From an uncultured Bdellovibrionales bacterium (GTDB taxonomy: Bacteria > Bdellovibrionota_C > UBA2361 > CAZKXU01): 64,000 nt of DNA. Shown here piece by piece: positions 4,364-49,523 of this stretch. A model generated the notes under the pieces. The model did not search any database, was not told the origin of the DNA, and saw only the letters and a list, made by a program, of their open reading frames with translations. Where the stretch lies: positions 36,078 to 100,077 of the forward strand of contig CAZKXU010000001.1 in the NCBI GenBank assembly GCA_964556665.1. The letters are read 5' to 3'. Made by a program: the position numbers and the translations under genes. Each line of letters opens with the position of its first letter. Position 1 is the stretch's first letter.

Positions 4364-5878
4364 CTAAGCTTCCGCAATCCTTTTTTTAACCACATCTAAT
4401 GCCTCCTGTACGCCTATTCTGTCCTGCTTAGTAGTGTCACGATCTCGAATTGTAACGGTGTGGTCGGTTAGTGACTGGTGATCTACGGTTAAGCAATACG
4501 GTGTTCCGATCTCGTCATGTCTTGCATAACGTTTTCCGATAGATTGCTGCTCATCATAGCTCGCATTAATGCCAGCACTATAGAACTTGGCAACAATATC
4601 CCGTGCAACCTCAGGTAGGCCGTCTTTTTTTGTAAGCGGACAGACTGCGACTTTAAATGGAGCAAGACGTGGATGCAGTTTTAATATAACCCGAGTCTTG
4701 GATTCCCCCTCTGCATCTACTCCTGACTCCTCTGCATAAGCATCGATCAGGTACATAAGCACAGCTCGGCTCAAACCAGCAGCGGGCTCAATAACGTACG
4801 GTACATAACGCCAGCCTGGTTTGCCTGTCTGTGGATCGTTTTTACCCTGATCAAAATAGGTGAGTTTGGCGCCGGAATACTCCGCATGTTTAGTAAGATC
4901 ATAATTAGTGCGGGAAGCTATACCCTCAAGCTCGCCCCATCCCCACGGATAATCATACTCTACATCAACGCAGCGATCAGCATAATGAGCTAGTTCATCC
5001 TCTGTATGCTCACGTAGTCTAAAACGCTGTGGATAGTTAGCAAAACGCTGCCACCATTTTAACCTTAGATCGCACCAATACTTGTGCCATTCCAGCTGCG
5101 AGCCTGGCTCTACAAAATACTCCATCTCCATCTGCTCAAATTCGCAGGTTCTAAAGAAGAAATGCTCAGTAGTAATCTCGTTTCTAAAAGATTTACCGCA
5201 TTGTGCGATTCCAAAAGGAACCTTCATAGACATGGAGCTTTGAACATTTAGAAACTGTACGAACATCGCCTGTGCTGTCTCAGGTCTTAGGTACACTGCT
5301 GACTCCTTGATGGCTGCTTCCATACGTTCGCGCAGCTCTAACTTAGTTAGACTCTTTCCGTGCACCTCATCTACAATAGCCTGTATCGGATCGACTGGGC
5401 CAAGTGAGGTACGGAACATTAAATTAAATTTCCTTTCAGTGCCCAAGTCGCTTGATCCGCAAACAGGACAGACATAACCACATTCTCCAACCTTACCCTT
5501 AACTGTTTCACCTTTAGCTTTGCCGCCTTTGATCCAGGTAATATCGCTGCCGGCACTCATGTTGGTAGCTTTATCTGCTCTAAAACGCTCCTTGCAGTTA
5601 TGACAATCCACGAGCGGATCGGTAAATCCAGAGAGATGCCCGCTTGCCTCCCAAACCTTTGGATGCATAACAATCGAGGAGTCAAGACCTACCACATCCT
5701 CCCGTTCGTGCACCATCGTACGCCACCATTCCGCAGCGATATTCCGCTTTAACTCAACTCCAAGCGGACCGAAATCGTATGCGCTTTTTAGTCCGCCGTA
5801 GATCTCGGAGCTTTGAAAAACAAAGCCGCGTCTCTTACAGAGCGAGGTGATTTTATTCATTATTTCAGCTTCAGCCAT
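4364..5878 (-). CDS. glyQS: Glycine--tRNA ligase, single-chain alpha2 type
   Basis: N-terminal RRGFVFQSSEIYGG, class II aaRS motifs, about 500 aa. ATG at 5878 overlaps the upstream TGA stop (ATGGCTGA); GTG at 5887 is also possible. Confidence 0.9.
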   Translation of the reverse strand: MAEAEIMNKITSLCKRRGFVFQSSEIYGGLKSAYDFGPLGVELKRNIAAEWWRTMVHEREDVVGLDSSIVMHPKVWEASGHLSGFTDPLVDCHNCKERFRADKATNMSAGSDITWIKGGKAKGETVKGKVGECGYVCPVCGSSDLGTERKFNLMFRTSLGPVDPIQAIVDEVHGKSLTKLELRERMEAAIKESAVYLRPETAQAMFVQFLNVQSSMSMKVPFGIAQCGKSFRNEITTEHFFFRTCEFEQMEMEYFVEPGSQLEWHKYWCDLRLKWWQRFANYPQRFRLREHTEDELAHYADRCVDVEYDYPWGWGELEGIASRTNYDLTKHAEYSGAKLTYFDQGKNDPQTGKPGWRYVPYVIEPAAGLSRAVLMYLIDAYAEESGVDAEGESKTRVILKLHPRLAPFKVAVCPLTKKDGLPEVARDIVAKFYSAGINASYDEQQSIGKRYARHDEIGTPYCLTVDHQSLTDHTVTIRDRDTTKQDRIGVQEALDVVKKRIAEA

Positions 5879-6977
5879 GTGCAACACTCAGATCAGGTAA
5901 ACGATTAACTCTTTCATATAAGGTATCTCTTTCTTGCGGCTCTCTACCAGCCGCTCTTATAATGCGCTTAATATCCTCAATTGTTAACGCATTAGGGGAA
6001 TCGGAGCCAGCCATATGATAGATCTTCTCCTCGGTGACTGTACCGTCAATATCATTTGCACCAAAAAGCTGTGCTATCTGTGCTGTTTTGACCCCGAGCA
6101 TAATCCAGTAAGCCTTAATGTGAGGAATATTAGAGAGCATCAATCGGCTGACTGCTATGACTCGTAAATCATCCACACCGGTAGGTGCAGGCAGCCGCTC
6201 CATACGGTTATTTTCATTGTGAAAGGCGAGCGGAATAAAAACCTGAAACCCTCCGGTTTCGGCTTGCAGAGTACGCAGACGGATAAGATGATCGACGCGT
6301 TCTTCTACCGTTTCGATAGTTCCGTATAACATGGTGCAGTTGCTTTTAAGCCCCAGCTCATGTGCAGTTCGGTGAACTGCCAACCATTCATCAGCTGTAG
6401 CCTTTTCACGACAGAGCTTTTTTCTGGCTCGCTCTGCAAAAATTTCTGCGCCACCTCCAGGTACCGAACCAAGACCAGCTGCTATGAGGCGAGTTAATAC
6501 TTGCTTATAGGTCATGCCGTATTTTACAGCGAAATAATGTATTTCTACCGCTGTAAAAGCCTTAATGTGCAAAGCCGGATATTCAGTATGAATCATCCTA
6601 AGGAGATTCTCATAGTACTCAAACGGTAGATCCGGATTAAGTCCATTCACGATATGAATCTCAGTCATGCCAATTTTATACCGTTCAGCTATCCAACGTC
6701 TGGACTGCTCAAGGCTCATGGTATAGGCTTGCGGATCGCCGGTCTTGATCCTAGAAAATGAGCAGAATATACAGTCTGCTTCACATACATTTGTACTGTT
6801 AAGATGTAGATTCCAGTTATAGTAAGTTATATTGCCATGCAGTCTCTCGCGATGCCGATTGGCAATAGCCCCTACTGTTAAAAAATCGTGATGGGTAAAT
6901 AACGCAACCCCTTCTTCAAGAGAGAGAAATTCACCTGCAAGTACTTTCTCCTCGATACGCTTTAAGATTCGATCCAT
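5871..6977 (-). CDS. Radical SAM menaquinone (futalosine route) enzyme, MqnC or MqnE
   Basis: CEADCIFCSF provides the CxxxCxxC motif. C-terminal FGANDIDGT motif typical of the MqnC/MqnE family. 368 aa. Confidence 0.75.
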   Translation of the reverse strand: MDRILKRIEEKVLAGEFLSLEEGVALFTHHDFLTVGAIANRHRERLHGNITYYNWNLHLNSTNVCEADCIFCSFSRIKTGDPQAYTMSLEQSRRWIAERYKIGMTEIHIVNGLNPDLPFEYYENLLRMIHTEYPALHIKAFTAVEIHYFAVKYGMTYKQVLTRLIAAGLGSVPGGGAEIFAERARKKLCREKATADEWLAVHRTAHELGLKSNCTMLYGTIETVEERVDHLIRLRTLQAETGGFQVFIPLAFHNENNRMERLPAPTGVDDLRVIAVSRLMLSNIPHIKAYWIMLGVKTAQIAQLFGANDIDGTVTEEKIYHMAGSDSPNALTIEDIKRIIRAAGREPQERDTLYERVNRLPDLSVAHG

Positions 6978-6990
6978 ACATTTGTTAGAG

Positions 6991-7755
6991 CTATAAAGCA
7001 GCTCTTAATCCTACAATTTTTTTCTTGAGTTCCTCACTCTGGTCACCGAGCTCAACGGCTTTCTCAAATGCAATTAAAGAGTTTTTATAATCCTTTGAGA
7101 TTTCGTAAGCAGTTCCGAGAGTTATATATGTTTCAGCGTTAGCTTTAACCTGAAGTGCTCTTTTTGCACTACTGATCGCTTTGTCCGTTTTACCATTTGC
7201 TAGAAAAAGCGAGCTCAGATTGGAGAGCAGCTGACCATCTTTTGGATTTAGTTCAACTGCAACAAGCATTAATTGCTCCGCCTTATCTAGTTTATTTTGC
7301 AGAGTATAAACCGAACTTAGCCGTTGTGGTATTGTTGGGTAATGAGGATCAAGTTTTAAGGCCGCTTCATAATTCTTTGCAGCAGCATCTGTATTTTTTG
7401 AGGCGAAATATGCATCACCTAAGCGAGCATAGATCCCGGGGTCTTTAGTGTCCTGATTAGCATACTGCTCCAAGAGGGCGATAGCCTGCGGCTCCTTCTT
7501 ATTAGTGATGTATACTGTGGCCAAATTTATTACAGCGGTTAAGTTTTTTGGGTCAGCTGCCAGGGCACTACGAAAAAATGCCTCTGCCACAGGATAATTT
7601 TTTGAACGTACCGCCTGAACACCCTTTTCATTTAGTATCGCAGATTTATTCTCAACTTTAGTGTGTTGCCCAATCTTTGGTGTGCAAAATGCAGAATACG
7701 GGAAAAATAGTAAAGCGAAAAATAAGGGGAAAATCCTAATCATCTGTTGCCTCAA
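6991..7755 (-). CDS. Secreted tetratricopeptide-repeat protein
   Basis: Signal peptide (IRIFPLFFALLFFPYSAFC), then repeated A-x-x-Y/F-x-x-A/L TPR-like 34-mers. Confidence 0.65.
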   Translation of the reverse strand: MRQQMIRIFPLFFALLFFPYSAFCTPKIGQHTKVENKSAILNEKGVQAVRSKNYPVAEAFFRSALAADPKNLTAVINLATVYITNKKEPQAIALLEQYANQDTKDPGIYARLGDAYFASKNTDAAAKNYEAALKLDPHYPTIPQRLSSVYTLQNKLDKAEQLMLVAVELNPKDGQLLSNLSSLFLANGKTDKAISSAKRALQVKANAETYITLGTAYEISKDYKNSLIAFEKAVELGDQSEELKKKIVGLRAAL

Positions 7756-7812
7756 AAGCTGTAGATATATAGGTAAAATCTAGCTTTTAGCGGCATCAAA
7801 GTCAATTATTAG

Positions 7813-8610
7813 CTACTTACTCCCTACACTTACATAAAACGCGAGACCACCAATTAATGCTGAATATATAATTGGTATGAGCGCAGTGATTAACTGAAAA
7901 TGCTTCCAGTATGGCCGCCCAGCCAGGAGTTCCTCGGCTTGAGTGATTACACGTGCATTTAGACCAAGGATTAAAACGGTAAAAAGAAATATCCCAGGTA
8001 TTTGCTGAAGATATGCAAGAAATAGAATCTGAAGCGGGCCAATAATCAGAAGAAGATTAAAGGAGCGTATCGTAAATTTAAGTAACTTTGACTGCTGCTT
8101 AATCGCTGCAAAAGTCTTCGCTAATTCTGTAGCAACAACTAAGGTGGATATGCCTAATGCGATGACTATAGCCTGCCAGCTCCAATTATATATCAAAATT
8201 GTAAAAGCTAAAAAACTAATAACTGTGTAATATGTCAGCGCAGCAGTCATGTATAATTTAATTATGCGTTTACTAAGATAGTGTGACTTTAGAATTGTTA
8301 GAGCCAATAAGGGAATAATTAGAAGAAACATCTCTCTGTCAGCAATGTTTCTGAATGAGTGTAGGGAGAATAAAAAAAGCAGTAATATTAATATTGTGAT
8401 TACAACGATGAATGTAAATTTAGCGCCTTTTTGTCCAGGACGTATAATTTTTTTGCAGAGCTCACGTAGTAATTTCCAAAGAATAAGAATAATTAATAAA
8501 AGAGCATAAAGTTTAATATTAATTACGGAGCCAAGTGTAGGAAACGCAAAAATAACCGGAAAGAAGAGCGGCAATACTAAATTGAGGTGCTGAATCAGTT
8601 TGAAAGGCAT
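7813..8610 (-). CDS. Polytopic integral membrane protein, function unknown
   Basis: About 8 hydrophobic helices in an AT-rich coding region. Confidence 0.5.
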   Translation of the reverse strand: MPFKLIQHLNLVLPLFFPVIFAFPTLGSVINIKLYALLLIILILWKLLRELCKKIIRPGQKGAKFTFIVVITILILLLFLFSLHSFRNIADREMFLLIIPLLALTILKSHYLSKRIIKLYMTAALTYYTVISFLAFTILIYNWSWQAIVIALGISTLVVATELAKTFAAIKQQSKLLKFTIRSFNLLLIIGPLQILFLAYLQQIPGIFLFTVLILGLNARVITQAEELLAGRPYWKHFQLITALIPIIYSALIGGLAFYVSVGSK

Positions 8611-9533: not shown

Positions 9534-10238
9534 ATGCCCAAGGACGTAACATACAGCCGGATCGGATTTGAGGTGCAGGAGATGTTTGGCTCCATTGCAG
9601 CTGGGTATGATCGTGCCAATACGATTCTTAGCTTTGGTATACATCATCTTTGGCGTAAGGCGCTTATAGCTAGCCTTCCAAAGGGCCAAAAACTCGAGAT
9701 ATTAGATCTTTGCACGGGCACTGCAGATCTTATTCCACCTCTGGTCCCTCTAGCAAAAAGGTTGGTAGGAGCTGATTTCTCTCTGCCTATGTTAGTCCAA
9801 GCAGGGAAGAAGCTTAATCGGCTTGGTTTAAAAGCAGAATTAGTACAGGCAGACGCCCAAAATCTTCCATTCGCAGAGATGAGTTTCGATCTGATAACGG
9901 TGGCTTTCGGAGTGAGAAATTTTGAAAATTTAGAATTGGGATTAAAAGAGATGCTTCGCGTAATTAAGCCGGGCGCCACAATTAGAATATTAGAATTTGG
10001 CACACCTCCCGGCCTTTTTGGTTTAATCTACAAATTTTATTCCGATAAGTTGCTGCCACTTATAGGTGGATTAATAACAGGAAATCGTGCTGCTTATCGC
10101 TATCTGCAGAAGACCTCCTCTCATTTTCCGTATGCCGATCAGTTTGCTGCTAAGCTAAGCGAGGTTGGATATCAAGATGTAAGTTATAAGGCCTTAACCT
10201 TCGGTATTTGTTATCTTTATTCAGCTAGACGGATCTGA
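9534..10238 (+). CDS. ubiE: UbiE/MenG family demethylmenaquinone methyltransferase
   Basis: N-terminal FxxxAxxYDxxN (FGSIAAGYDRANTILS). SAM motif I ILDLCTGTADL. Confidence 0.75.
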   Translation: MPKDVTYSRIGFEVQEMFGSIAAGYDRANTILSFGIHHLWRKALIASLPKGQKLEILDLCTGTADLIPPLVPLAKRLVGADFSLPMLVQAGKKLNRLGLKAELVQADAQNLPFAEMSFDLITVAFGVRNFENLELGLKEMLRVIKPGATIRILEFGTPPGLFGLIYKFYSDKLLPLIGGLITGNRAAYRYLQKTSSHFPYADQFAAKLSEVGYQDVSYKALTFGICYLYSARRI

Positions 10239-10431: not shown

Positions 10432-11082
10432 GTGCCATATACAAAAAAGTGGGTTATAGCTCTTACAGGTGCCAGTGGGATGCCGTATGCATTGCGGCTT
10501 ATTAAGAATCTTTTGAATGAGGAGATCGAACAGCATATAATAATCTCTGAAGCTGCTCATCAGGTATTGGCCGCAGAGCAGGGTATTAAAATATCTAGTG
10601 CCAAACTTAACAGTAAATCACTCCTAGGGGTGGAGAGTGATAAACTCCACTTTTATAACCCGCGTGACATAGGAGCGGCCCCTTCTTCGGGGTCGTTTTT
10701 ATTTGAGGGAATGGTAGTCGTGCCATGCAGCATGGGCACCTTGGGAGCGATTGCAACCGGAACACCGCGCAACCTTATTCATCGTGCCGCCGATGTGGCT
10801 CTCAAGGAGAATCGAAGGTTAATCCTTGTTCCTCGAGAAACTCCACTTTCGGCCATCCATCTTGAGAATATGCTTAAACTAAGCAGGATGCAGGTGCAGA
10901 TGGTTGCAGCGATGCCAGGCTTCTATGCTATGCCTGCTAATATAAATGATTTAGTTGACATGCTCGTTATGAAGATCATGGATTCAATGGGAATTCATAG
11001 AGAGCTGGTGCCGCGTTGGGGTGTGGAGAGTCCAGGCAGCGCCATTACTGAGACAAAAGTATTTGAGTTAAACCGTGGGTAA
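10432..11082 (+). CDS. ubiX: Flavin prenyltransferase UbiX (prenyl-FMN synthase)
   Basis: IALTGASG flavoprotein start, VVPCSMGTLG motif, about 210 aa. Confidence 0.85.
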   Translation: MPYTKKWVIALTGASGMPYALRLIKNLLNEEIEQHIIISEAAHQVLAAEQGIKISSAKLNSKSLLGVESDKLHFYNPRDIGAAPSSGSFLFEGMVVVPCSMGTLGAIATGTPRNLIHRAADVALKENRRLILVPRETPLSAIHLENMLKLSRMQVQMVAAMPGFYAMPANINDLVDMLVMKIMDSMGIHRELVPRWGVESPGSAITETKVFELNRG

Positions 11083-12097
11083 ATTAGCTCGTGTAGGAAT
11101 AACTGAAGGAAGGCTAGTACCAGTTGATGGATTGGCATGGGATCTCTCTGTGCAGAAGAGCGATAACTTTGTAGTAACAGCATTTGAACGGTTTGGTGTC
11201 TCAGAAACAGCAGCAGATATAATAGCATCCCGTCCATTAAGTGTAGAGCAGATCGAGTTTTTATTAGCAAAAGCCTCCTTCCCAATTTTGTTGAAATTAG
11301 TAGAGCTCCGAAAACAGAAGGTGGCGGGCATGAAGCCTACTCCCATCGTAGTTCTGCCGATTGGATCCTGGGTAGCTACATATGGGCTTAAGGCTTCGGT
11401 AAAGTTAGCAGTCGATTTTCTTTGCTCATTTGATAGTCCCTCTCTACAAGTAGTGTTAGAAGATCTGCAATCGATAGACTCAGCAATCCTTGAACTTGGA
11501 CTTTATGATGCCATTAGGGAGATACACGAAAGTAGAGCTGGTGTTGTCTTAGTAGGGCCTAGCGTTGAGGACATTCTTAAATGGATTGGTTGTATAGGTG
11601 TTAACCAAGATGAAGTATTTCACTTGGTTGAACTGGAAAGAGTGTTGTACTGTTTAAAGCAAGCTGGTGTTTCACGACTGCGCTATAGCTCTAATAAATA
11701 TTTACTAAAGCTGCTAAATGAAGTCGGTTTGTCAGCAAGTATATTGACCGATATAGGGGTTTATTCAACCCATACTAAGATGGCTGAGGAGCTGTATGCG
11801 TTAGGACAGCTCTCAGAGGATTGTCGTATCGATGTTTGGATGCCAGGTCTTATCGCACAAGATTTTAGCGCTGATTCTGCTACTGATCTGAAATTATTAC
11901 GTACTTTGGCTGTTGGGACTCTAGCATTGCCTCGTATTAGTTATCGACGTGCATCTAGCCGTTTTTTCTCTAGAGAGGGGCTAAGTTTCGCTAAATTCTG
12001 TGGCGCTAATGATTACGGATTTGGAGCAGTTGACGAATTAACCGAGCGTCGTTTAGGTGTGGCTCGCTTAGATCTACTTTCAAAGGTAATCGCATGA
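11075..12097 (+). CDS. MqnC/MqnE-fold paralogue lacking the radical SAM CxxxCxxC motif; function unknown
   Basis: C-terminal FCGANDYGFGAVDE parallels FGANDIDGT of the true MqnC/E at 5871-6977, and the middle region aligns by eye. No cluster-binding cysteines. Confidence 0.4.
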   Translation: MGKLARVGITEGRLVPVDGLAWDLSVQKSDNFVVTAFERFGVSETAADIIASRPLSVEQIEFLLAKASFPILLKLVELRKQKVAGMKPTPIVVLPIGSWVATYGLKASVKLAVDFLCSFDSPSLQVVLEDLQSIDSAILELGLYDAIREIHESRAGVVLVGPSVEDILKWIGCIGVNQDEVFHLVELERVLYCLKQAGVSRLRYSSNKYLLKLLNEVGLSASILTDIGVYSTHTKMAEELYALGQLSEDCRIDVWMPGLIAQDFSADSATDLKLLRTLAVGTLALPRISYRRASSRFFSREGLSFAKFCGANDYGFGAVDELTERRLGVARLDLLSKVIA

Positions 12098-13827
12098 GGA
12101 AGCTAAAGGTTGCCAATCTTAACTATATCGCCGCACTTCCTTTTAAAACTTTGGAGGGCATGCCTAACATTTGTTATGAGGAGAACTCTCCAACCGAGAA
12201 TGCACGTAAGTTGCATGAGGGTGAGGTGGACCTAGCACTAATATCAGTGGTTGAGTATGCAAATCATGGAGGATATGTAGGGCTTGATTTTGGGATTGCG
12301 GCAGTTGATAAATTAGATGCAGTGTCGCTCCTTTCCAACCATGAAATTAAAGACCTAACAACAATCTATCTCTATGAAGGCTCAAGTGCTTCGGCAGTAA
12401 TGTTAAAATTGTTGCTAGCAGAAAAGTATCTTACTACACCACGACTTGTGCGGGTAAACAGTAGGAATATTGTGGAATCACTAAAGCCTTACGAGGGCGT
12501 GCTGGTCATTCACGAAGTTGAACCTATTGTAAAAGAGAAATTTAAAGTTTGTGAGGATCTTGGGCGCATATGGTACGAGTTTACTGGCCTACCATTTGTC
12601 TATCTTGTCTGGGCAATGCGACCTGGCACACTCAGTATGGATCAGCACAGAAAACTCAATGATCTCTTTCATCGCTCTGTATGCGTTAGAGAGATTATCG
12701 CAGATGAGTTTGATAGCGAATTAGGACATGAAACTGGCGCAGCCTCTGCCTATGTTGGTCAAACAATCCATCACTACTTAGATGATACTCTACTGGGAGG
12801 ATTGGATGAGTTTTTTAAAAGATCGGCTAGTCTTAACCTACTGCCACAGACTCTCTATCGGAGTGCTACCTTTACACTTCTGAATCGCAAAGCATCGCCA
12901 AATGTGCAACATAAGCCGGTACAGTCATTATTTACAGAGGTGATAAAGGGTAGGCGTTTGAGTATTCGAGAAGCCGTGCGTATCGCTGAAGAGGCTACAA
13001 TGAGTGATTTGGCTTTGGCCACGCAGATGGTAACTCCAGCTCAGGTTAACAAGTCTCACTTCAATATGGTCTTGCCACTAAATGCAGCACAGTTACAGGA
13101 CGATCAACTGCTTTGGGAAAGACTTTTTCAAGCAGAAGTTAAAGGAGTTGATCATATTTTGATTAATCCTGGTGGTACGCTGCATGCTTCACTGTCTTGG
13201 TGGGAGGAGCGTCTTGCAACTATTAAGAAAAGATTTAATTTTTTGATTGAAGGATTTACCGTTAGTGAACTTTTGATGCTCTCTAAGTTGTCAAAAATGT
13301 CAGTTGGCACTCTAGCGGCTAAACTTAAACTTGCAGGGCTCGATCTGATATCTGGTACGGGTGGGGGGATGCTCTTTGATCGTATTGCTGCTAAGCACTG
13401 CAATTCGCAGATAAGCGCGGCTGAATGGATAGATACAATTCGATGGGTACATTCAGTAGGTGTCAAATCTAGCTGTTGCCTGACTATATCAAAGTTTGAA
13501 AGTTGGGAAGAGCGATTAATACATCTACAGAAACTCCGTAGTTTGCAGGATGAGAATCCTGGATTTAAATACTTTGGTGTGCAGATCTCAGAACAGTGGC
13601 CTGGACCTGTGGTCTCGGAAATAAAGTTAAGAACTCTGATGTTAGCCCGGCTCTTTTTAGATAATGTACCAACTTTTATAGAGTATGATTATACGCATGG
13701 TTTATTTGCTGCAACAGCGGGACTTTCCTTTGGGGCCAATCAGTTGCGAATCGACCCTACACTGCCAAATAGTAAGAGCATCTTTGCTGCTGTAGATGTA
13801 ATGCCTGGGTTGGAACTAGTTGGGTAG
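12094..13827 (+). CDS. MqnA-like (chorismate dehydratase, PBP-fold) domain fused to a second cysteine-less MqnC/MqnE-fold domain
   Basis: N-terminus KVANLNYIAALPF...DLALISVVEY resembles MqnA. C-terminal half (FKYFGVQI...SFGANQLRID) parallels the MqnC C-terminus. Overlaps the upstream stop by 4 bp. Confidence 0.45.
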   Translation: MRKLKVANLNYIAALPFKTLEGMPNICYEENSPTENARKLHEGEVDLALISVVEYANHGGYVGLDFGIAAVDKLDAVSLLSNHEIKDLTTIYLYEGSSASAVMLKLLLAEKYLTTPRLVRVNSRNIVESLKPYEGVLVIHEVEPIVKEKFKVCEDLGRIWYEFTGLPFVYLVWAMRPGTLSMDQHRKLNDLFHRSVCVREIIADEFDSELGHETGAASAYVGQTIHHYLDDTLLGGLDEFFKRSASLNLLPQTLYRSATFTLLNRKASPNVQHKPVQSLFTEVIKGRRLSIREAVRIAEEATMSDLALATQMVTPAQVNKSHFNMVLPLNAAQLQDDQLLWERLFQAEVKGVDHILINPGGTLHASLSWWEERLATIKKRFNFLIEGFTVSELLMLSKLSKMSVGTLAAKLKLAGLDLISGTGGGMLFDRIAAKHCNSQISAAEWIDTIRWVHSVGVKSSCCLTISKFESWEERLIHLQKLRSLQDENPGFKYFGVQISEQWPGPVVSEIKLRTLMLARLFLDNVPTFIEYDYTHGLFAATAGLSFGANQLRIDPTLPNSKSIFAAVDVMPGLELVG

Positions 13828-13833
13828 TTTCTG

Positions 13834-14706
13834 ATGAAAACGGTAATTCCGACTCTGCAGCTCTGGGGTAATGTAGTTAAGTTCTCACATACAATTTTTG
13901 CTTTACCATTTGCATTAGCGATGTTTGTAATTGTCGCTTCTCGTTATCCGGTTACTGTATTTCAACTTCTATGGATCTTGGCTGCGCTGGTTGCGGCACG
14001 TACAGCCGCAATGTCCTTTAACCGCCTCATTGATCGTAAGATTGATGAGCTAAATCCACGCACCAAAGACAGGGAGCTGCCTGCGGGGCGCATCGGAGTG
14101 CGAAGTGTTATGATATTGCTATTCTGCTCATCAATTCTATTTCTGTTTTCTTCGGGTGCCCTGGGTTTGCATTGTCTTATCTTGGCATTGCCAGTGTTAG
14201 CTGTCTTGTTTCTTTATTCCTGGTCAAAACGATTTACTTCTTATAGTCATCTGCTGCTTGGTCTTGCCTTAGCTCTCGCACCAGGAGGTGTTTGGTATGC
14301 GTTAACTGCTCAATTTTCGTATGAGCCTATAGTAATGATGTTAGCGGTGCTTTTCTGGGTAGCAGGCTTCGATGTGCTTTATGCGATACAGGATACTAAC
14401 TTTGACCGAGAGCATGGGCTGAACTCTATCCCAAGCCGTTTTGGGGTGAGCAAAGCACGCCTGTTAGCCTTTATATTTCATTGTATAGCAATCACACTGT
14501 TTAATATTCAGGGGGTATACACAGACCTAGGCTGGATATATTTTTTCGGATTAGCTCTTTTCTCCATTGTTTTACTTAGTCAGCATTGGATTATACAAAT
14601 GCGCGGTTTGGCAGAGATTAATCACCTATTTTTTAGCCGTAATGGCGCTGCTGCAGTTATCTATTTTGTAGCTGTACTTCTTGATGTCACACTACGTTCA
14701 GTTTAG
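13834..14706 (+). CDS. UbiA-family aromatic prenyltransferase (MqnP-like), 8-9 TM
   Basis: Polytopic membrane protein. NRLIDRKID and YAIQDTNFD motifs (first Asp-rich motif partly degenerate, N-R for N-D). Confidence 0.7.
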   Translation: MKTVIPTLQLWGNVVKFSHTIFALPFALAMFVIVASRYPVTVFQLLWILAALVAARTAAMSFNRLIDRKIDELNPRTKDRELPAGRIGVRSVMILLFCSSILFLFSSGALGLHCLILALPVLAVLFLYSWSKRFTSYSHLLLGLALALAPGGVWYALTAQFSYEPIVMMLAVLFWVAGFDVLYAIQDTNFDREHGLNSIPSRFGVSKARLLAFIFHCIAITLFNIQGVYTDLGWIYFFGLALFSIVLLSQHWIIQMRGLAEINHLFFSRNGAAAVIYFVAVLLDVTLRSV

Positions 14707-15156: not shown

Positions 15157-16212
15157 ATGCTTGATAGTGTTAGGAAAACTGCGCAGCAGTTTAATATTAC
15201 AGGAACCATATCATCTCTCGAAGAATTAAAACGAGGGCACATTCATTCGACCTTCGTAAGTAGCTGGACAGAAAATGGTAAGGTGCGCCGGTATATTCAT
15301 CAATGTATAAATCGTAACGTTTTCCCTGATCCTCCACAGGTAATGAGAAATATTGAAAAAGTTACTGCACATTTGAGAGGGAAAGTTGGTGCAAGTAAAG
15401 AGATCGAGATACTGGAGATTATTCAGACTAAGAAAGGAGAGAGTTACTTAATAGACGAACGGGGTGAATACTGGCGTACCTATAAGTATATCGAAAACAC
15501 CAAAGTTTTTGACAGCTGTACAGATCCTGCAGTTGCTTATGAGGCTGCGCGAGCCTTTAGTCTTTTTGTCTCTTTACTTACCGATTTATCAACATCTGAG
15601 CTGGCTGTAACCATCCCGGATTATCATCATGCAGTAAAGCGGTTAAATGTATTCAAGGCAGCCCTAAAAAACGATCAACTAAGTAGAGCCTCGGACATTA
15701 AAGAGGAGGTTCAGTTTATTAATGAGAGAGAGGGCCGTATCGGATCGATAGCTAATCACATCGAGGCGGGAAGGCTCCCTTTAAGAATTATGCATTATGA
15801 TACTAAGATCAATAATGTTCTTTTTGGCATGGATGTACGAGCTAAGGCGGTAGTTGATCTAGATCTGGTGATGCCGGGGTCTATTCTTTATGATTTTGGA
15901 GATCTGGTTAGGAGCGCGGTTAGTAAGAGTGCTGAGGATGAGGAGGATTTAAGTAAGGTAAAATTCGAGCGCAGCATTTACGATGCGCTCTATCGTGGCT
16001 ATAACGAAGCTGGAGCTGGTTATCTTACCGATTTTGAGCGGAGCCTATTCCCAGAGTCAGCCAGAGCTGTAGCTTTTACACTTGCAGTTAGATTTCTCAC
16101 CGATTACTTATGTGGCGATACATATTTTAAGACCTCCAAGCCTAAACACAACCTGCTTCGTGCACGTACGCAGCTTAAGCTGGTGGAGGAAATTGAACGG
16201 GAGCTGATGTAA
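15157..16212 (+). CDS. Aminoglycoside-phosphotransferase-fold (APH/choline-kinase-like) small-molecule kinase
   Basis: HYDTKINNVLF (HxDxxxxN catalytic loop) followed by DLDLV...DFGDL. Confidence 0.5.
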   Translation: MLDSVRKTAQQFNITGTISSLEELKRGHIHSTFVSSWTENGKVRRYIHQCINRNVFPDPPQVMRNIEKVTAHLRGKVGASKEIEILEIIQTKKGESYLIDERGEYWRTYKYIENTKVFDSCTDPAVAYEAARAFSLFVSLLTDLSTSELAVTIPDYHHAVKRLNVFKAALKNDQLSRASDIKEEVQFINEREGRIGSIANHIEAGRLPLRIMHYDTKINNVLFGMDVRAKAVVDLDLVMPGSILYDFGDLVRSAVSKSAEDEEDLSKVKFERSIYDALYRGYNEAGAGYLTDFERSLFPESARAVAFTLAVRFLTDYLCGDTYFKTSKPKHNLLRARTQLKLVEEIERELM

Positions 16213-18717: not shown

Positions 18718-18809
18718 ACTGGGACCGCGGACATCCTGTCCGCTGTTGGGACAGCCTACAATTACGGCAAGTCTACTAATCTGCGGACAGGATGTTCGCG
18801 CTCCCAGTG
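18718..18809. repeat. Palindromic element family A, copy 3 (variant with GCGGACATCCTGTCCGC arms)
   Basis: TACTGGGACCGCGGAC...GTTCGCGCTCCCAGTG. Covers the 3' end of the pabB-like gene and creates three spurious ORFs. Confidence 0.7.
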
Positions 18810-20116
18810 CTTTTATACGCCTCCCAGATGCCGCGCGCCTTATGGAAGGTCTCTTCATACTCTGCTTCAGGCTCTGAATCGATTACCACTGCACCGCCTG
18901 TTTGAAATATAAAACTATCAGCTGAAAGGAGAGCTGTGCGAATAGCTACATTAAAATGTAGGTAATCTCCACCAAAAATGCCGATAGCCCCTGTATAAAC
19001 ACCTCTTCTTACTCCTTCAAGTTCAGTGATTATTTTCATTGCGGCGATCTTTGGACAACCTGTTACAGAGCCAGAGGGGAAAAGCGCCCTGACAATCTCT
19101 ACCAGGCCTACTTCACTAGGCAGTTTGGCTTCAATGTCAGCAAGGAGATGATGAAGATGAGGGAGCGTTTCTAGTCTAGGATAGCTTATAACTTTAACCG
19201 ATCCGGTTTTGGCAACGCGACCCAGATCGTTTCTAATAAGGTCAACTATCATAGCAAGCTCAGCCAGGTTCTTAGGACTTCGTAGTAGCTCGGCCGGATC
19301 TGAATCGAGAGCGGCGGTTCCTTTAATTGGAGAGGCGAGTATTGTAGCTCCTCTTTTCTCTATAAAAAGCTCAGGTGAAGCGCTTACGATTGAACTATGC
19401 TGTAACCTTATATAAGCGGCTCGTTGTGCCGGAGAGGATCTGCGTAGGTTTAGGTAAAAATCTTCCGGACGACTACATGCTGGAAGTTTAAATCTCTGGC
19501 TAAGATTCACCTGATATACATTCCCGTCTTTAATCTCATCTTTGATCTTATTTACAGCGTCTAGATAGCTCTGATGTGTAAAATTTGAAAATTGCTCAAG
19601 CTCCCGCTTCATCTGCGTAAAATTCAAAGTTGAAGGAGAGGCTGTAACAGAGCTGGTGGCGCTAGATGAGAGCAGTTCGATATTATTCTCCATTTTCCAA
19701 AGCGGAGTGAAATTACCTTGATAAGAGATGCACCACTTGATGCAGCAATCCGATGATTTATCTATTTCAAATATTGTTGAGTAGAGAAAGAATGAGAGAA
19801 GCGGGTGCTCCTCCTTAGCAGAAGCTAGCTTAGGAAGCTTCTCAATAAAATGGCTGAATTCGTATGAGATGAATCCGGCACTTAATGGCGGTGTAGATGT
19901 AGTACTGGTAATACTCTCTAATGTTCGTATGATAGACCAGGGATCGTTGCAGGCATATGAAATCTCGATCTTATGTACCGGATCAAGAAAAATAAAGCTG
20001 CGATCAGCTGTATCTATCTGAGCAAATCCCTCTCTCTGCCCGTATCGCAGTAGCATCGTTTCAAGAAGATGACTTCCGGCAGCGGCTATTATCCCTTTTC
20101 TGATATCTGTAATCAC
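18776..20116 (-). CDS. Chorismate-binding enzyme, aminodeoxychorismate/anthranilate synthase component I (PabB/TrpE-like)
   Basis: C-terminal GGAVVIDSEPEAEYEETFHKA and PIKGT motifs. The 3' end runs into palindromic repeat A3. Confidence 0.7.
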   Translation of the reverse strand: MITDIRKGIIAAAGSHLLETMLLRYGQREGFAQIDTADRSFIFLDPVHKIEISYACNDPWSIIRTLESITSTTSTPPLSAGFISYEFSHFIEKLPKLASAKEEHPLLSFFLYSTIFEIDKSSDCCIKWCISYQGNFTPLWKMENNIELLSSSATSSVTASPSTLNFTQMKRELEQFSNFTHQSYLDAVNKIKDEIKDGNVYQVNLSQRFKLPACSRPEDFYLNLRRSSPAQRAAYIRLQHSSIVSASPELFIEKRGATILASPIKGTAALDSDPAELLRSPKNLAELAMIVDLIRNDLGRVAKTGSVKVISYPRLETLPHLHHLLADIEAKLPSEVGLVEIVRALFPSGSVTGCPKIAAMKIITELEGVRRGVYTGAIGIFGGDYLHFNVAIRTALLSADSFIFQTGGAVVIDSEPEAEYEETFHKARGIWEAYKSTGSANILSAD

Positions 20117-20697
20117 AAGCAGTGCGCCAAAAAGTTGTGGATTATTCTATCTCCACTCTCTGTTAAAAATGATTCAGGATGAAACTGTACCCCCCAGATC
20201 GGTTTATGACGATGACGAAGAGCCATCACCTCGCCGTCAACAGTATCGCTTGCTAGGATCTGTAAGTCTTCCGGTATCTCGTCAATCGCTAATGAATGAT
20301 ACCGTGCTACTGTCAGCGGAGAAGGAAGGCCTGCGAAAATATCGGAAGCAGTATGATGTATCAGGCTGCATTTACCGTGTAGCGGTTTTTTTGCCCGCCG
20401 TAGTCTTGCTCCAAAATGTTCGCCGATCAGCTGATGCCCAAGGCAGACACCTAATATAGGCACCTGAATATCCGTTGATTGAAGCACATCCTTACAAATA
20501 CCAGAATCTTTCGGAGTGCCAGGACCAGGGGAGAAAATTATTGCTGCCGGTGCAATACTCCGTATCTCGTTAAGATGTAAGCTGTCATTCCTATGTACTA
20601 AAACCTGAGTTTCTAGAGCAACCAGCTGCTTAAACAGCTGTGCTAAGTTAAAGGTGAATGAGTCATAGTTATCGATAATTAGAAGGGAAGCACTCAT
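20113..20697 (-). CDS. Class I glutamine amidotransferase component II (PabA/TrpG-like)
   Basis: LGVCLGHQ nucleophile-Cys motif, C-terminal HPES. 4-bp overlap with the component I gene. Confidence 0.8.
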   Translation of the reverse strand: MSASLLIIDNYDSFTFNLAQLFKQLVALETQVLVHRNDSLHLNEIRSIAPAAIIFSPGPGTPKDSGICKDVLQSTDIQVPILGVCLGHQLIGEHFGARLRRAKKPLHGKCSLIHHTASDIFAGLPSPLTVARYHSLAIDEIPEDLQILASDTVDGEVMALRHRHKPIWGVQFHPESFLTESGDRIIHNFLAHCL

Positions 20698-20884: not shown

Positions 20885-21946
20885 ATGTTTTCATTTCGAT
20901 TCAAGCATGTCTGCTTAGAGGCTTACGCCGTTAATCTTCCACCTAATGAACTATCTTCTGATACGATTGAAGATAGACTCGCCGCCGTTTATCAGAGGCT
21001 ATCTATCCCGCTTGGGACTCTGGAAAAACTAAGTGGTATTAAAACTAGATATTTTTGGCCGAATGGTACTCTTCCCAGCCAGCCCGCAACGGAGGTATCA
21101 AAGCTTGCGCTTGAGAAAATTGGATTCGATCGGAGTCATATCGGTGCTATAATTAACACCTCTGTTACTCGTGATTATTTTGAGCCAGCTACTGCCTGTA
21201 TAGTTCATGGGAACCTAGGGCTAGCGGAGACAACAGTTGCCTTTGATGTGACTAATGCTTGTATCGGATTCTCTAACGGAATCTTTCTGCTTGCCAATAT
21301 GATTGAGTCCGGCATGATCAAGGCCGGAATAATCGTATCTGCAGAGGTGTTGAACCGTTTTCTTGATTCAAGCCTTGAGTATGTGCAGCATAGTAAAGAC
21401 GTAAGTCGTGATAATCTCCTAAAACTTCTGCCTGCCTTTACATTAGGTAGCGGATCGGTCGCGTGGGTTTTGGCGCATGAAAGCATCGCCACACAGAGGC
21501 ATAGAATTGTTGGTGGCGTAGCGCGTTCAGCTACGCAGTTTAATGATCTTTGTAATGGGAACAATGACTACTGCGTCACGCAGCCAGGCGAGATTATGCC
21601 GGTAATGCTGACAGAGTCACAGAAGCTGATCTCTTCTGCATCCAAGCTTGGTGCAAGAGTGTGGCCAGAGGCGAGCCAGGTTTTAGGATGGAATAGTGAA
21701 GCGATTAATCACATCTTTTGCCACCAGGTTGGTAAGCAAGTCAATGAGGCTTTTTTTGCTGAGCAAGGGTTAGACTACAGCAAGGAGTATACAATTTATC
21801 GAAAGTACGGAAATTTAGTATCTGCAGCGTTACCAACGGCGGTTGCTTTAGGCATAGACGACAAGCCAGTGCGTAGCGGTGAAAAACTGTTATTAACAGC
21901 TTATGGTAGTGGTCTAAATACTGTCTTTACCGGTATTGAGTGGTAG
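20885..21946 (+). CDS. oleA: FabH-like thiolase, OleA-type (head-to-head Claisen condensing enzyme)
   Basis: KAS III fold (NACIGF active-site Cys region). First gene of a thiolase / hydrolase-ligase / dehydrogenase set. Confidence 0.6.
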   Translation: MFSFRFKHVCLEAYAVNLPPNELSSDTIEDRLAAVYQRLSIPLGTLEKLSGIKTRYFWPNGTLPSQPATEVSKLALEKIGFDRSHIGAIINTSVTRDYFEPATACIVHGNLGLAETTVAFDVTNACIGFSNGIFLLANMIESGMIKAGIIVSAEVLNRFLDSSLEYVQHSKDVSRDNLLKLLPAFTLGSGSVAWVLAHESIATQRHRIVGGVARSATQFNDLCNGNNDYCVTQPGEIMPVMLTESQKLISSASKLGARVWPEASQVLGWNSEAINHIFCHQVGKQVNEAFFAEQGLDYSKEYTIYRKYGNLVSAALPTAVALGIDDKPVRSGEKLLLTAYGSGLNTVFTGIEW

Positions 21947-24519
21947 CCTCTAAATCGATGTTCTCCACCTTTGCAATATCAAAACTTCTTCCCTTTAAGT
22001 CTAATTACCTGGAAGTAGCTGGGTATAAGATGCATTATCTTGATGAGGGCAGCGGTCCTATAGTTGTAGCTCTTCACGGCAATCCGACCTGGTGTTTTTA
22101 TTATAGAAATCTAATTACAGAGCTGCGCCAGCATTTTCGCATTATAGTTCCTGATTATATCGGCTGCGGACTCTCAGACCATCCTGAGGATAAACACTTC
22201 AGAGCAATTCATAGAATCGAGCAGCTGGATGAATTCCTTTCAAAATTAGGAATTAATAAGCTTTCATTAATAATGCACGATTGGGGCGGACCGATCGGGA
22301 CAGGCTGGGCAGTACGAAATATTTCTAAAGTTGAACGCCTAGTCTTCTTAAATACAACACTGACGGAAACAGATGCATTACCGCGCGTTATCAAAATGGC
22401 CGCCAAGGGTTGGATCGGGAGATACATCACAAAATATAGTATGCGTTTTCTTAAGCTTACTACGGATTTTGGGGTGGTGCACAAGCTTTCGAAAGAAATA
22501 AAGCAGGGATATTACTATCCGTATCGCAGTTCGAAACGTCGTACGGCTATATGTGATTTCGTTTCTGATATCCCATTTGACAGCAGCTATCCAAGCTACG
22601 GTGATCTTATGGATATGGCGGGTCGTCTAGCGGATCTTAGATCGGTTCCTGTGAAAATAATTTGGGGATTAAAAGATCCATGTTTTCATAGGGAGATGCT
22701 TAACAAAGTTGCAAAGCACTTTCCGCAAGCCGAGGTGGTTGAAATCCCAGAGGCATCGCATCTCGTATTAGAAGATGCACCGCAAATTGTCTGCCCAGCT
22801 GTTAAATCATTTTTACTTGATCCAGCACCCCGCAGCGGAACGGCAGTCTCAAACATGGCACCTTCTTATGAATTACAGCCTAATCGATTTTTTAAATCAT
22901 TCAGCGAACATGCACAAAAATCACCCTCTGCAGATGCAGCCATAGTACCTTGGTTTTTTGGAGAGATGGTAACTTATAACCATATTAGTTTTCGTGATTT
23001 ACAACTCTTAGTAAATAAGTATCAGCGCGGTTTGGCAGAGTTAGGTTTGCAGCGCGGGGACAAAGTCATAATGTTAGTGTCACCTGGAGTTGATTTTCTA
23101 GCACTAAGCTATGCTGTGATGGGTCGCGGAGCGATCCCTGTTTTTCTTGATCCTGGAATGGGGAAGGAGAATCTCTTAAACTCTATTGAACATGTAAAAC
23201 CTGCTGCTTTCATAGGATCTCCAAAGGCGCAGGTGCTGCGTTGGCTTAAAAGATCTTTGTTTGCTGGCATCAAGTTTCATCTTACGGCCAGCGAGTGGTT
23301 CTATACTGGCGGGCCGACTCTCTCCTATCTTAAAAAATTCTCATCATTCCCACCTGATCCGGTACAGGGGACAGGAGTGGCTCTGATTGCATTTACCTCA
23401 GGTGCGACCGGAGTGCCAAAAGGTGTGATATATACAGATGAAATGGTAGATGCACAGCTTCAGATCTTTAAAGATTCTTTTGGAATACAGCCTTTAAACA
23501 AAGATCTGCCACTATTGCCGATTTTTTCCTTATTTAACCTGGCATTGGGTGTGTGTAGTGTTTTCCCGCCTGTAGATCCATCAAAGCCACTAGAATTATC
23601 TCCATCCAAAATAGTTAAAATTATAAATGACCTTAATGTTGATTACTCATTTGGTTCACCTACGCTTTGGAGAAAAATAGGGGAGTACTGTTTGCGCAGC
23701 ACTGATAAGCTTCCTTCAATCCGTACTATATTAATGGCAGGTGCACCTGTGCCTCCAGAGACGGTAGTGTTAGTTAAAAACTATCTGCCTAACGGAGAGG
23801 TGTATACTCCTTATGGAGCTACGGAGGCTTTGCCGGTAACATTTGTTTCAGGTGAGGATATTTTAACACATCAAAGTGTGCCGGCGCTTACTGGGGAGTT
23901 AGGAACATTCGTTGGTCGAGCTGTTTCTGGCCTTGAGGTGAAAATTATCTCTGAATCTGATGAGAGATTAAGTGAAACTGTATCTCTGCCTCCTCTGCAG
24001 ATAGGGGAGATAGTTGTACGCGGGAAAAATGTTAGTTCAGAATATCTAGATCTGCCGAGATCAAATGAGCTTTCTAAAATACCTACCTCTTCAGGTCTAT
24101 GGCACCGCATGGGTGATATGGGCTATCTCGATAAGATCGGCAACCTGTATTTTTGCGGACGCAAGAGTCATATAGTGAAGTGGCAAGGAAAAGTATTTTA
24201 TAGTATTCCAGTCGAGCGTGTTTTTAATCAGCATCCCAAAGTTAGACGTTCTGCTTTAATTGCACTTGCTCGATCCTCTGGTATTGGAATTGCGATTGAA
24301 CCGTATCCGCAACACATGCCATCAAGCACAGATGAGCGTGATAAATTCATAGAGGAGCTTTTACAGTTAGGCGCAGCGAATCCTCTTACTGCCTCTTTAG
24401 CTAACATTTTCTTCTTTCCAAGTTTCCCGGTAGACAGTCGACATAACGCTAAAATCTTTAGGGATAAGCTGGGAGAGATGGCATCAAGGGAGGGATATGA
24501 ACATGAGCGCGCAGCATAA
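21940..24519 (+). CDS. oleBC: Fused alpha/beta-hydrolase (OleB-like) plus AMP-dependent synthetase/ligase (OleC-like, beta-lactone synthetase family)
   Basis: N-terminal HGNPTWCFYYR haloalkane-dehalogenase-like hydrolase motif. AMP-binding motif FTSGATGVPKGV further on. 859 aa. Confidence 0.65.
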   Translation: MVASKSMFSTFAISKLLPFKSNYLEVAGYKMHYLDEGSGPIVVALHGNPTWCFYYRNLITELRQHFRIIVPDYIGCGLSDHPEDKHFRAIHRIEQLDEFLSKLGINKLSLIMHDWGGPIGTGWAVRNISKVERLVFLNTTLTETDALPRVIKMAAKGWIGRYITKYSMRFLKLTTDFGVVHKLSKEIKQGYYYPYRSSKRRTAICDFVSDIPFDSSYPSYGDLMDMAGRLADLRSVPVKIIWGLKDPCFHREMLNKVAKHFPQAEVVEIPEASHLVLEDAPQIVCPAVKSFLLDPAPRSGTAVSNMAPSYELQPNRFFKSFSEHAQKSPSADAAIVPWFFGEMVTYNHISFRDLQLLVNKYQRGLAELGLQRGDKVIMLVSPGVDFLALSYAVMGRGAIPVFLDPGMGKENLLNSIEHVKPAAFIGSPKAQVLRWLKRSLFAGIKFHLTASEWFYTGGPTLSYLKKFSSFPPDPVQGTGVALIAFTSGATGVPKGVIYTDEMVDAQLQIFKDSFGIQPLNKDLPLLPIFSLFNLALGVCSVFPPVDPSKPLELSPSKIVKIINDLNVDYSFGSPTLWRKIGEYCLRSTDKLPSIRTILMAGAPVPPETVVLVKNYLPNGEVYTPYGATEALPVTFVSGEDILTHQSVPALTGELGTFVGRAVSGLEVKIISESDERLSETVSLPPLQIGEIVVRGKNVSSEYLDLPRSNELSKIPTSSGLWHRMGDMGYLDKIGNLYFCGRKSHIVKWQGKVFYSIPVERVFNQHPKVRRSALIALARSSGIGIAIEPYPQHMPSSTDERDKFIEELLQLGAANPLTASLANIFFFPSFPVDSRHNAKIFRDKLGEMASREGYEHERAA

Positions 24520-42619: not shown

Positions 42620-42627
42620 ACTAAACC

Positions 42628-43086
42628 TTAATAAGTTCTAGCCTTAGTTCCTGGCACCAAAATTCTGACAAGATGACGCTTATGATCAACCTGCACATCG
42701 ACATTTGCACGTCTTGAAATGCGCTTAGCTAAATCATCTAAGCTGCCGATGGCATCCATTGTTAGTCTTCTGTCAGCAAGTTCATATGCTACAAAACTTG
42801 AATAACGTGCGCTTGATGCGAGAATTGATGCCACCTCTTCAAGCGAGGAGTTCTCTACGCTGAGATGCAGCTCTGGCATCACAACCGGAGCCGCAGCGCG
42901 TTTAGTCTCACGTGCTGGTTTGGTATACGGCATATACTCAATTTTTACCCTACCATACACAGGCTCTGGTGGTAGCTGTTCTGTAGCTACACGATATTGG
43001 GGTATAGGCTCTGGCTCTGGCTTGGAAAAAGATGCACAACCACAGAGGCATAAACCTAATATTATGGCAGAAATCCGTGCTATCAC
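42628..43086 (-). CDS. Lipoprotein (T4SS outer-membrane/periplasmic component?)
   Basis: Lipobox LCLCGC. Overlaps the upstream gene by 4 bp. Confidence 0.45.
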   Translation of the reverse strand: MIARISAIILGLCLCGCASFSKPEPEPIPQYRVATEQLPPEPVYGRVKIEYMPYTKPARETKRAAAPVVMPELHLSVENSSLEEVASILASSARYSSFVAYELADRRLTMDAIGSLDDLAKRISRRANVDVQVDHKRHLVRILVPGTKARTY

Positions 43087-43535: not shown

Positions 43536-43557
43536 AATTACCTCCAAAATTTCTATC

Positions 43558-44892: not shown

Positions 44893-44900
44893 ATGCTACC

Positions 44901-45701: not shown

Positions 45702-45709
45702 AAATGCCC

Positions 45710-46426: not shown

Positions 46427-46436
46427 TTACTCATTA

Positions 46437-46823: not shown

Positions 46824-46834
46824 TCATCCCTCCC

Positions 46835-49508: not shown

Positions 49509-49523
49509 TAGTAAGATTGTATT

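Follow-up and report, generated by a model that had tools for sequence, protein, structure and literature searches.

Many bacteria, pathogens among them, make menaquinone through the futalosine pathway, which is a drug target and whose set of enzymes is regarded as known. Chorismate dehydratase (MqnA) follows a substrate-assisted mechanism (PMC9672406). In MqnA from Streptomyces coelicolor (ScMqnA) the 'absolutely conserved' residues Asn17 and Ser86 position the enolpyruvyl carboxylate, which is also bound by the amide of the glycine in an IGD motif; the S86A, N17D and N17S variants are nearly inactive and N17A is active with the wild-type kcat (PMC9672406). Fusions of MqnA with the radical S-adenosylmethionine (SAM) enzyme MqnC in a single polypeptide (PF02621, PF04055 and PF19288, ∼600 residues) are common in the Myxococcota and in other 'Deltaproteobacteria', where their annotation is that of a cyclic dehypoxanthinyl futalosine synthase. 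Two of these intact fusions score 443 and 453 bits against TIGR03699, the MqnC model, and are thus above its cut-off of 428 bits.

Here, we describe two open reading frames from a 64 kb stretch of DNA of an uncultured Bdellovibrionales bacterium (referred to below as the window). The two proteins that they encode, labelled ProtA and ProtB, lie between ubiE/ubiX and a gene of the ubiA family, exactly where an original prediction made from the sequence had placed them. The prediction took both to be paralogues with the MqnC/MqnE fold, sharing a C-terminal GAND region, and the second to be fused to an MqnA-like domain; profile comparison and structure models bear this out. ProtA is paralogous to the MqnE/MqnC barrel over its full length. 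ProtB, as its sequence and gene order are read here, is a positional descendant of the bifunctional MqnA–MqnC enzyme that lost both catalytic sites. Both proteins retain their folds in structure models and, as judged by substitution rates, are under purifying selection. The fusion itself, which had been singled out, is an ordinary arrangement in the Myxococcota and other 'Deltaproteobacteria', and the unusual part is the dead version of it. This dead fusion and a cluster-less family that includes ProtA (the X family) are the new elements: neither has a Pfam or NCBIfam model, and no paper describing either was found. In one clade a bifunctional MqnA–MqnC enzyme appears to have become a conserved protein without catalytic motifs, which raises the question of the route by which this uncultured Bdellovibrio-like group makes its quinone.

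The fusion protein ProtB

Residues 6–244 of ProtB match PF02621 (E = 4e-29; 102 bits against a cut-off of 26), in agreement with the periplasmic-binding-fold domain that had been proposed. The PDB sequence matches of this domain are chorismate dehydratases only, and no MqnD chain is found among the PDB sequence matches of ProtB, even at E values of up to 1. Residues ∼340–551 match the MqnC, MqnE and CofH models, in each case only from model position ∼78, past the cluster loop. The scores are 117.5 bits against TIGR03699 (model positions 78–297; cut-off 428.1) and 108.5 bits against the MqnE model TIGR03700 (cut-off 434.6), and BLASTP aligns 220 residues with the MqnE encoded in the window at 30% identity (E = 1e-23). 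The AlphaFold2 (AF2) model of ProtB has a predicted local distance difference test score (pLDDT) of 86.8 and a predicted TM-score (pTM) of 0.89. The best Foldseek matches of this model are MqnE (PDB entries 6xig and 6xi9) and MqnA (7an9 and others), and the target-normalised TM-score is 0.80–0.82 to structures of ScMqnA compared with 0.69 to MqnD (2czl). The profile matches are to MqnC, MqnE and MqnA and not to an unrelated TIM-barrel family.

The losses in ProtB were assessed in an alignment of 37 ProtB relatives with 39 intact fusions of PF02621 to a radical-SAM domain. All 39 intact fusions contain CxxxCxxC, compared with none of the 37 ProtB relatives, in which the loop is deleted. The absence of this motif from both proteins of the window had been noted in the original prediction, and the relaxed pattern C-x2-6-C-x1-3-C is absent as well. 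Since the motif is missing from every one of the 37 relatives, its absence is not the result of a sequencing error. Other losses were scored against the columns with a conservation of 90% or more in the intact fusions; in the radical-SAM half, most of these columns are lost in the ProtB relatives. The lost motifs comprise DRNINYTNVCxxxCxFCAF, GG.QILLQGG, the Glu of PGGGAE, STxTMM, TAF..W..FQ, SW.T.G and the tail D.GS.M.EENVVS.AG; those kept are RL..AGL, W..H..G..S, R..H..K.R.LQD..GF, LR...R..DN and G-A-N. Of the invariant MqnC-domain motifs (GG.QILLQGG, PGGGAE, STxTMM and GAND-GS-EENVVSAAG), which from general knowledge of radical SAM enzymes we take to contact SAM or the substrate, the ProtB family retains only the GGG stretch and G-A-N. 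In the AF2 model most of the retained residues map to helices α5 and α6, which are also conserved in real MqnC. Comparison of the model with the alignment indicates that most of the predicted barrel strands are followed by loops that are not kept, and these loops are the least conserved parts of the protein. Two alignment columns of the ProtB family contain Cys in at least 40% of sequences (65 and 73%). On the evidence of the alignment, ProtB cannot bind a Cys-ligated [4Fe–4S] cluster and so cannot be a Cys-ligated radical SAM enzyme.

The MqnA-like domain is present as predicted, but it is degenerate as well, which corrects the earlier picture of the protein. The position of Asn17 (residue numbers are those of ScMqnA) is occupied by Asn in none of the 37 ProtB relatives, compared with 30 of 31 intact fusions. 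At the position of Ser86, Ser is found in 12 of the 37 relatives, compared with Ser or Thr in 37 of 38 intact fusions; the HMMER and MAFFT alignments concur on this column. ProtB of the window has Ala at both positions. In addition, bulkier residues stand in place of the IGD glycine (Gly151) and of Ala187 in the pocket. Judged by these positions, ProtB lacks the determinants of canonical MqnA catalysis.

At least 37 full-length homologues of ProtB were found, with identities of 33–42%. Identity between ProtB proteins and intact fusions is 24–28% (27–28% for ProtB of the window), compared with 48–59% among the intact fusions themselves. In a search seeded with the MqnC domain of one intact fusion, none of the metagenome-assembled genomes (MAGs) that carry ProtB was recognized by its locus-tag prefix among the best 120 of ∼8000 matches.

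The gene order is similar in the two lineages. In ten genome loci from Bdellovibrionota/Oligoflexia MAGs, ProtA is encoded directly upstream of ProtB in nine; most of the ten have UbiE and/or UbiX ahead of the pair and UbiA behind it, with UbiA following ProtB in seven. Four related contigs (L011, L015, L016 and L017) contain the operon UbiE-UbiX-X-(MqnE)-[MqnA–MqnC fusion], and that of a Myxococcota-like MAG (L018) extends into a deaminase-type amidohydrolase and UbiA. In the loci examined, UbiX lies directly ahead of ProtA or X wherever this part of the row is present, the exceptions being L005, L012 and L013, in which no UbiX was seen. A block encoding GlyRS, MqnE, a tetratricopeptide-repeat (TPR) protein and a membrane protein is common to L004 and the window. 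Because it occupies the same operon slot, we read ProtB as the positional orthologue of the intact fusion.

ProtA and the cluster-less paralogues

ProtA alone has no sequence match in Pfam, NCBIfam or the PDB. Pairwise BLAST of ProtA against ProtB or MqnE is not significant (E = 0.2–1.5), and searches of the PDB with ProtA alone or with a profile of six ProtA sequences returned nothing meaningful. The relationship emerges from the comparison of family alignments with hhalign, in which the ProtA family matches the ProtB family over the whole barrel (97.3%, E = 2.6e-11, 258 columns), the MqnE alignment (98.3%, E = 1.4e-14) and the MqnC alignment (98.1%, E = 8e-14). The AF2 model of ProtA has a pLDDT of 90.5 and its Foldseek matches are headed by MqnE (6xig/6xi9), followed by HydE, BioB, PylB, HydG and ThiH. 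Given this homology of the full-length barrel, the C-terminal G-A-N-D region of ProtA had been recognized correctly, and the stretches quoted at the time (KFCGANDYGFGAVDE in ProtA, SFGANQLRID in ProtB and FGANDIDGT in MqnE) are all present.

ProtA keeps GANDxGxG and none of the other invariant MqnC-domain motifs. Its N-terminus, MGKLAR, is conserved in its homologues, more than 60 of which are full length, and follows the lineage-specific pattern MGxLARxGIxxG. Among 51 sequences of the family the only polar residues that are at least 90% conserved are Lys74 and Ser299. No column with at least 40% Cys is present in these 51 sequences or in 37 sequences of the more distant relatives described below (tier-2 X), and three conserved Cys columns are found in none of the ProtA, ProtB and tier-2 X families. 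A profile search of 1.84 billion representatives with ProtA yielded 181 relatives. Among the best 150 of these 181, one protein, P0049 (L014:1011-2096), contains a Cys motif, CVPYCQWC, at residues 93–100, the position of the radical-SAM β1 loop. The ProtB homologue encoded beside it (L014:2174-3943) is without the motif, and that of P0049 could be a relic or could have arisen by chance.

The X family is defined here as the cluster-less paralogues of MqnE/MqnC whose genes follow ubiX in mqn operons. ProtA belongs to it by its profile homology, by the slot of its gene between ubiX and the gene for the PF02621–barrel fusion and by its lack of a Cys motif. The tier-2 X proteins have 350–390 residues with GGSD and GAND motifs and form one family with ProtA (hhalign 100%, E = 9e-48). 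MqnE (E = 7e-21) is slightly nearer to them than is MqnC (E = 1e-17). Their conserved motifs are D129, W131, EGGxDL and GANDLGFAAVD; ProtA differs from them in its conserved N-terminus and in the loss of GGSD. The X genes of operons with intact enzymes encode tier-2 proteins. As X coexists in these operons with working MqnE and MqnC, the family is older than the death of ProtB. It sits in mqn operons across Bdellovibrionota-like and Myxococcota-like lineages.

A protein of 186 residues is encoded between ubiX and mqnE in the Myxococcota-like MAG GCA_016182965.1 (L018:8197-8757). It matches positions 259–341 only of the MqnE model (E = 3e-6) and is not matched by the ProtA profile. From this C-terminal match it is an apparent stand-alone CofH_C-like fragment in the X slot, and with 186 residues it is too small for a barrel enzyme. 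SCO4493, which lies between ubiX and mqnE in Streptomyces, was weighed as a possible X homologue; a proteomic survey of the nucleoid was the one titled paper found to mention it.

Rates of substitution were estimated from the closest loci. The comparison of L005 with L012, and roughly also that of L003 with L012, is usable for this purpose, the other pairs being saturated. Between L005 and L012 the ratio of nonsynonymous to synonymous substitution rates (dN/dS) is ∼0.03 for ProtB (dN 0.002, dS 0.053) and ∼0.08 for ProtA (dN 0.006, dS 0.072). Over larger distances the pair diverges quickly. At an MqnE identity of 74–75%, intact fusions are 59% identical (L017 versus L015), compared with ∼39% for ProtB and 38% for ProtA (window versus L004); in the latter comparison the N-domain of ProtB is 43% and its C-domain 36% identical. 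MqnE of the window is 74% identical to its L004 orthologue and 67–69% identical to MqnE of the intact-fusion lineages. The low dN/dS and the lower identities at equal MqnE identity show that both proteins are kept by selection, yet under weaker constraint than the neighbouring enzymes.

Possible roles of the pair

We favour the view, with the scales close to level, that ProtA and ProtB may serve the menaquinone machinery without catalysis, as pseudoenzyme subunits or as binders of ligands. A non-catalytic role is favoured because conservation follows the fold rather than a new active site, because ProtA is nearly without invariant polar residues and because an X protein can be as small as 186 residues. 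The pair would act as a 'prozyme' formed by dead paralogues or as a scaffold; alternatively, it may bind benzoate-type or naphthoate-type intermediates, for example for the prenyltransferase encoded directly downstream. It would assemble with, or hand a ligand to, the active enzymes of the operon (MqnE, UbiX and the UbiA-type prenyltransferase), with ProtA as a diverged member of the older cluster-less family X. The MqnA and MqnC reactions would be run by genes elsewhere in the genome, or would no longer be canonical. Pseudo-enzyme scaffolds or a remodelled early pathway had been offered, in hedged form, as the interpretation of the locus, and this is the direction in which the evidence points. 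If the pair is a scaffold, it would represent a pseudoenzyme layer in quinone biosynthesis, an idea akin to the accessory proteins of ubiquinone synthesis.

Several points weigh against a non-catalytic pair. Modelling of single chains is unable to show a complex. The intact and strongly conserved MqnE needs some supply of 3-enolpyruvyl-benzoate; no second MqnA was seen in the window or, for 13 related loci, in the stretch up to 10 kb from the pair, which is a small part of each genome. A gene for MqnC was likewise not seen in the window or in the stretches up to 10 kb from the pair in the related loci. ProtB also keeps the GGG loop, a number of Arg and His residues in its barrel and, from MqnA, part of the Ser loop that binds the carboxylate, which makes a new catalytic site equally possible. 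Finally, the dN/dS values come from one close pair with few substitutions.

It is possible, if unlikely, that the proteins are instead neofunctionalised enzymes: ProtA or X, perhaps together with ProtB, would catalyse a step of the pathway without radical chemistry in a pocket inherited from MqnC/MqnE. The likeliest step would be the conversion of cyclic dehypoxanthinyl futalosine (cyclic DHFL) to 1,4-dihydroxy-6-naphthoate (the MqnD step), with the MqnB or MqnL step as alternatives. The operon consistently includes X or ProtA beside MqnE and MqnA–MqnC, a paralogue of the enzyme one step earlier would be able from the outset to bind the product of that enzyme, and tier-2 X retains conserved Asp, Trp and Gly motifs. 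Moreover, neither the window nor the related loci, read up to 10 kb from the pair, showed a gene for MqnD, UbiD/MqnL or MqnB/MTAN, and a precedent exists in other futalosine-pathway genomes from which MqnD is missing and for which a non-orthologous replacement, MqnZ, has been predicted (PMC4746308). However, mqn genes are often scattered, so that their absence near the operon is weak evidence. The scarcity of invariant polar residues in ProtA, the poor conservation of the loops past most of the predicted ProtB barrel strands and the mere 186 residues in the X slot of L018 all speak against a new enzyme. In addition, since the upstream MqnC domain is dead, there is possibly no cyclic DHFL to process in the lineage of the window.

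Unlikelier still is that the N-domain of ProtB remains a chorismate dehydratase that feeds MqnE, with the dead C-terminal barrel as a structural appendage. MqnE requires the product of this reaction, and ProtB keeps the fold, the WA.RP motif and part of the Ser loop that binds the carboxylate. The substrate-assisted mechanism and the wild-type kcat of N17A (PMC9672406) are also in favour of this view, as is the presence of Ser or Thr at position 86 in 17 of the 37 ProtB relatives. However, the family shows no selection for Ser86, and ProtB of the window has Ala instead, the substitution that leaves ScMqnA nearly inactive. The exchange of the IGD glycine and of Ala187 for bulkier residues also argues against activity, as does the divergence of the N-domain, which is as fast as that of the dead C-domain.

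A more doubtful proposal again takes two forms. In the first, this Bdellovibrionota/Oligoflexia clade would lack any working MqnA or MqnC and would nevertheless make a naphthoquinone, the steps from chorismate to naphthoate being run by ProtA and ProtB, perhaps with MqnE, through chemistry without the canonical radical-SAM cyclase; in the second, the X proteins would be obligatory non-catalytic activators of MqnE and MqnC. Rewiring of the first kind would define a lineage with altered early menaquinone steps, and obligatory activators would give radical SAM enzymes their first described 'prozyme' partners.

It is highly improbable that the pair forms a non-canonical radical-SAM or Fe–S enzyme with cluster ligands located elsewhere or split over ProtA and ProtB. 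Such cluster sites are known in other families (Dph1–Dph2, PMC11048331), and P0049 has its CVPYCQWC at the β1-loop position, but P0049 is one of ∼150 relatives, the Cys columns are limited to the two of the ProtB family and most of the SAM-contacting motifs have gone too. The least tenable explanation, that of decaying pseudogenes or of an assembly or sequencing artefact that hides a Cys motif, could appeal to the faster evolution of both proteins relative to the neighbouring enzymes. Conservation across the family refutes it: independent assemblies contain 37 full-length ProtB and more than 60 full-length ProtA homologues, each with an open frame and the same deletion. In addition, dN/dS is 0.03–0.08, the gene starts overlap and the folds are predicted with confidence.

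Gene neighbourhood and comparison with known systems

The features of the locus are collected in Table 1. Profile matches agree with the original assignment of the flanking ubiE, ubiX and ubiA-family genes and of a bona fide radical SAM enzyme nearby. The description of the row as a futalosine-pathway row stands with a qualification: the genes of the row itself are of late-pathway types (MqnG-, MqnM- and MqnP-like), and MqnE lies close by on the opposite strand. This MqnE, 4 kb upstream of the pair, is the sole intact radical-SAM enzyme of the pathway in the window. The start of ProtA overlaps the stop of ubiX by 8 nt and the start of ProtB overlaps the stop of ProtA by 4 nt (ATGA); these overlapping starts suggest translational coupling. 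The MqnP models score ∼230 bits on the UbiA-like protein, under their cut-offs. No tRNA or Rfam element was found within the window.

Table 1. Features of the menaquinone locus and other genes of the 64 kb window
Feature	Positions	Strand	Evidence or description
Aminofutalosine synthase MqnE	5871-6977	-	Genuine enzyme with CEADCIFC; TIGR03700, 506 bits (cut-off 434)
TPR protein and multi-pass membrane protein	6991-8610	-	TPR protein with signal-peptide-like N-terminus; membrane protein of 265 residues without family match
UbiE/MenG/MqnG-type methyltransferase, first in row	9534-10238	+	PF01209, E = 3.5e-52; TIGR01934, 220 bits, above cut-off; synteny conserved
UbiX/MqnM-type flavin prenyltransferase	10432-11082	+	TIGR00421, 196 bits (cut-off 109)
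ProtA, 340 residues, GTG start	11075-12097	+	MqnE/MqnC-barrel paralogue without Cys motif; member of X family
ProtB, 577 residues	12094-13827	+	MqnA-like domain fused to MqnC/MqnE-like barrel
ProtB N-domain, residues ∼1–265	12094-12888	+	MqnA-type Venus-flytrap fold (predicted); enolpyruvyl-binding/catalytic positions lost
ProtB C-domain, residues ∼266–577	12889-13827	+	MqnC-derived barrel (predicted); [4Fe–4S] loop deleted, SAM-site motifs lost
UbiA-family (MqnP-like) polyprenyltransferase, directly after ProtB	13834-14706	+	TIGR01475, 267 bits (cut-off 181)
APH-fold kinase	15157-16212	+	Close homologue of N-acetylhexosamine 1-kinase (PDB 4wh1/4ocj, E = 6e-70)
Chorismate-binding enzyme (PF00425) and overlapping class I glutamine amidotransferase	18776-20697	-	PabAB or TrpEG type
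KAS III-like protein, α/β-hydrolase fused to AMP-binding enzyme (859 residues) and 3β-hydroxysteroid dehydrogenase/epimerase	20885-25528	+	
Conjugation/type IV secretion-type genes	39860-51650		TraC-, TrbI- and TraG-D_C-like
LanM-type class II lanthipeptide synthetase	52313-55543	-	DUF4135 + LANC_like; candidate locus for a ribosomally synthesized and post-translationally modified peptide (RiPP)
DUF2063 and MbnB/TglH/ChrH pair	61164-62727	-	Second candidate RiPP locus

The genes for the TPR protein and the membrane protein stand beside ubiE in the window. In the dead-fusion lineage both are also found near ubiE in L004 and L012, and the membrane-protein gene alone in L009; in the intact-fusion lineage both are found in L017 and the TPR gene in L011 and L015. 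Downstream of ProtB, mostly past UbiA, the window, L012 and five of the ten related genome loci have a gene for an APH-fold kinase, which is absent from loci with intact fusions. The kinase, whose linkage to the row is lineage-specific, is probably a sugar-recycling gene product. A part for it in a bypass of the ribose-1-phosphate type was considered; as a close homologue of N-acetylhexosamine 1-kinase, it is probably unrelated.

Further downstream, the pair of genes for the chorismate-binding enzyme and the amidotransferase is 4 kb from the menaquinone row, and its position is not kept in L012. The order of the genes from the KAS III-like protein to the epimerase is kept in L012 and L013. Large TraG-D_C homologues, comparable to those of the conjugation-type region of the window, are encoded one or two genes upstream of the mqn operon in L011, L015 and L016.

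Among known systems, prozymes such as those of the trypanosomatid S-adenosylmethionine decarboxylase and deoxyhypusine synthase offer a parallel, in that a dead paralogue is kept under selection next to an active relative in the same pathway, as ProtA and ProtB may be. The parallel is an analogy only, and heterodimer formation or activation by ProtA and ProtB is hypothetical. With MqnA (PDB entries 7ahr, 2i6e and 6o9a) ProtB shares the predicted Venus-flytrap fold and PFVF.VWA.R and, in part, the Ser-rich carboxylate loop; unlike in MqnA, the residues at positions 17, 86, 151 and 187 (Asn, Ser, Gly of IGD and Ala) are not conserved in the ProtB family.

MqnE (6xi9/6xig) and MqnC (TIGR03699) are the best structural and profile matches of ProtA and of the C-domain of ProtB, and a CofH_C-type C-terminal region with G-A-N is common to all four. 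Unlike MqnE and MqnC, the two proteins of the window have no cluster loop, ProtB scores far under the family cut-offs and ProtA is not matched at all. The closest counterparts of ProtB are the intact MqnA–MqnC fusions. Unlike them, ProtB is without CxxxCxxC, most of the SAM-site motifs, Asn17 and a conserved Ser86. It is like them in its domain order, in both predicted folds and in its operon slot after UbiE-UbiX-X(-MqnE), and it has the HGGY motif in common with the nearest of them.

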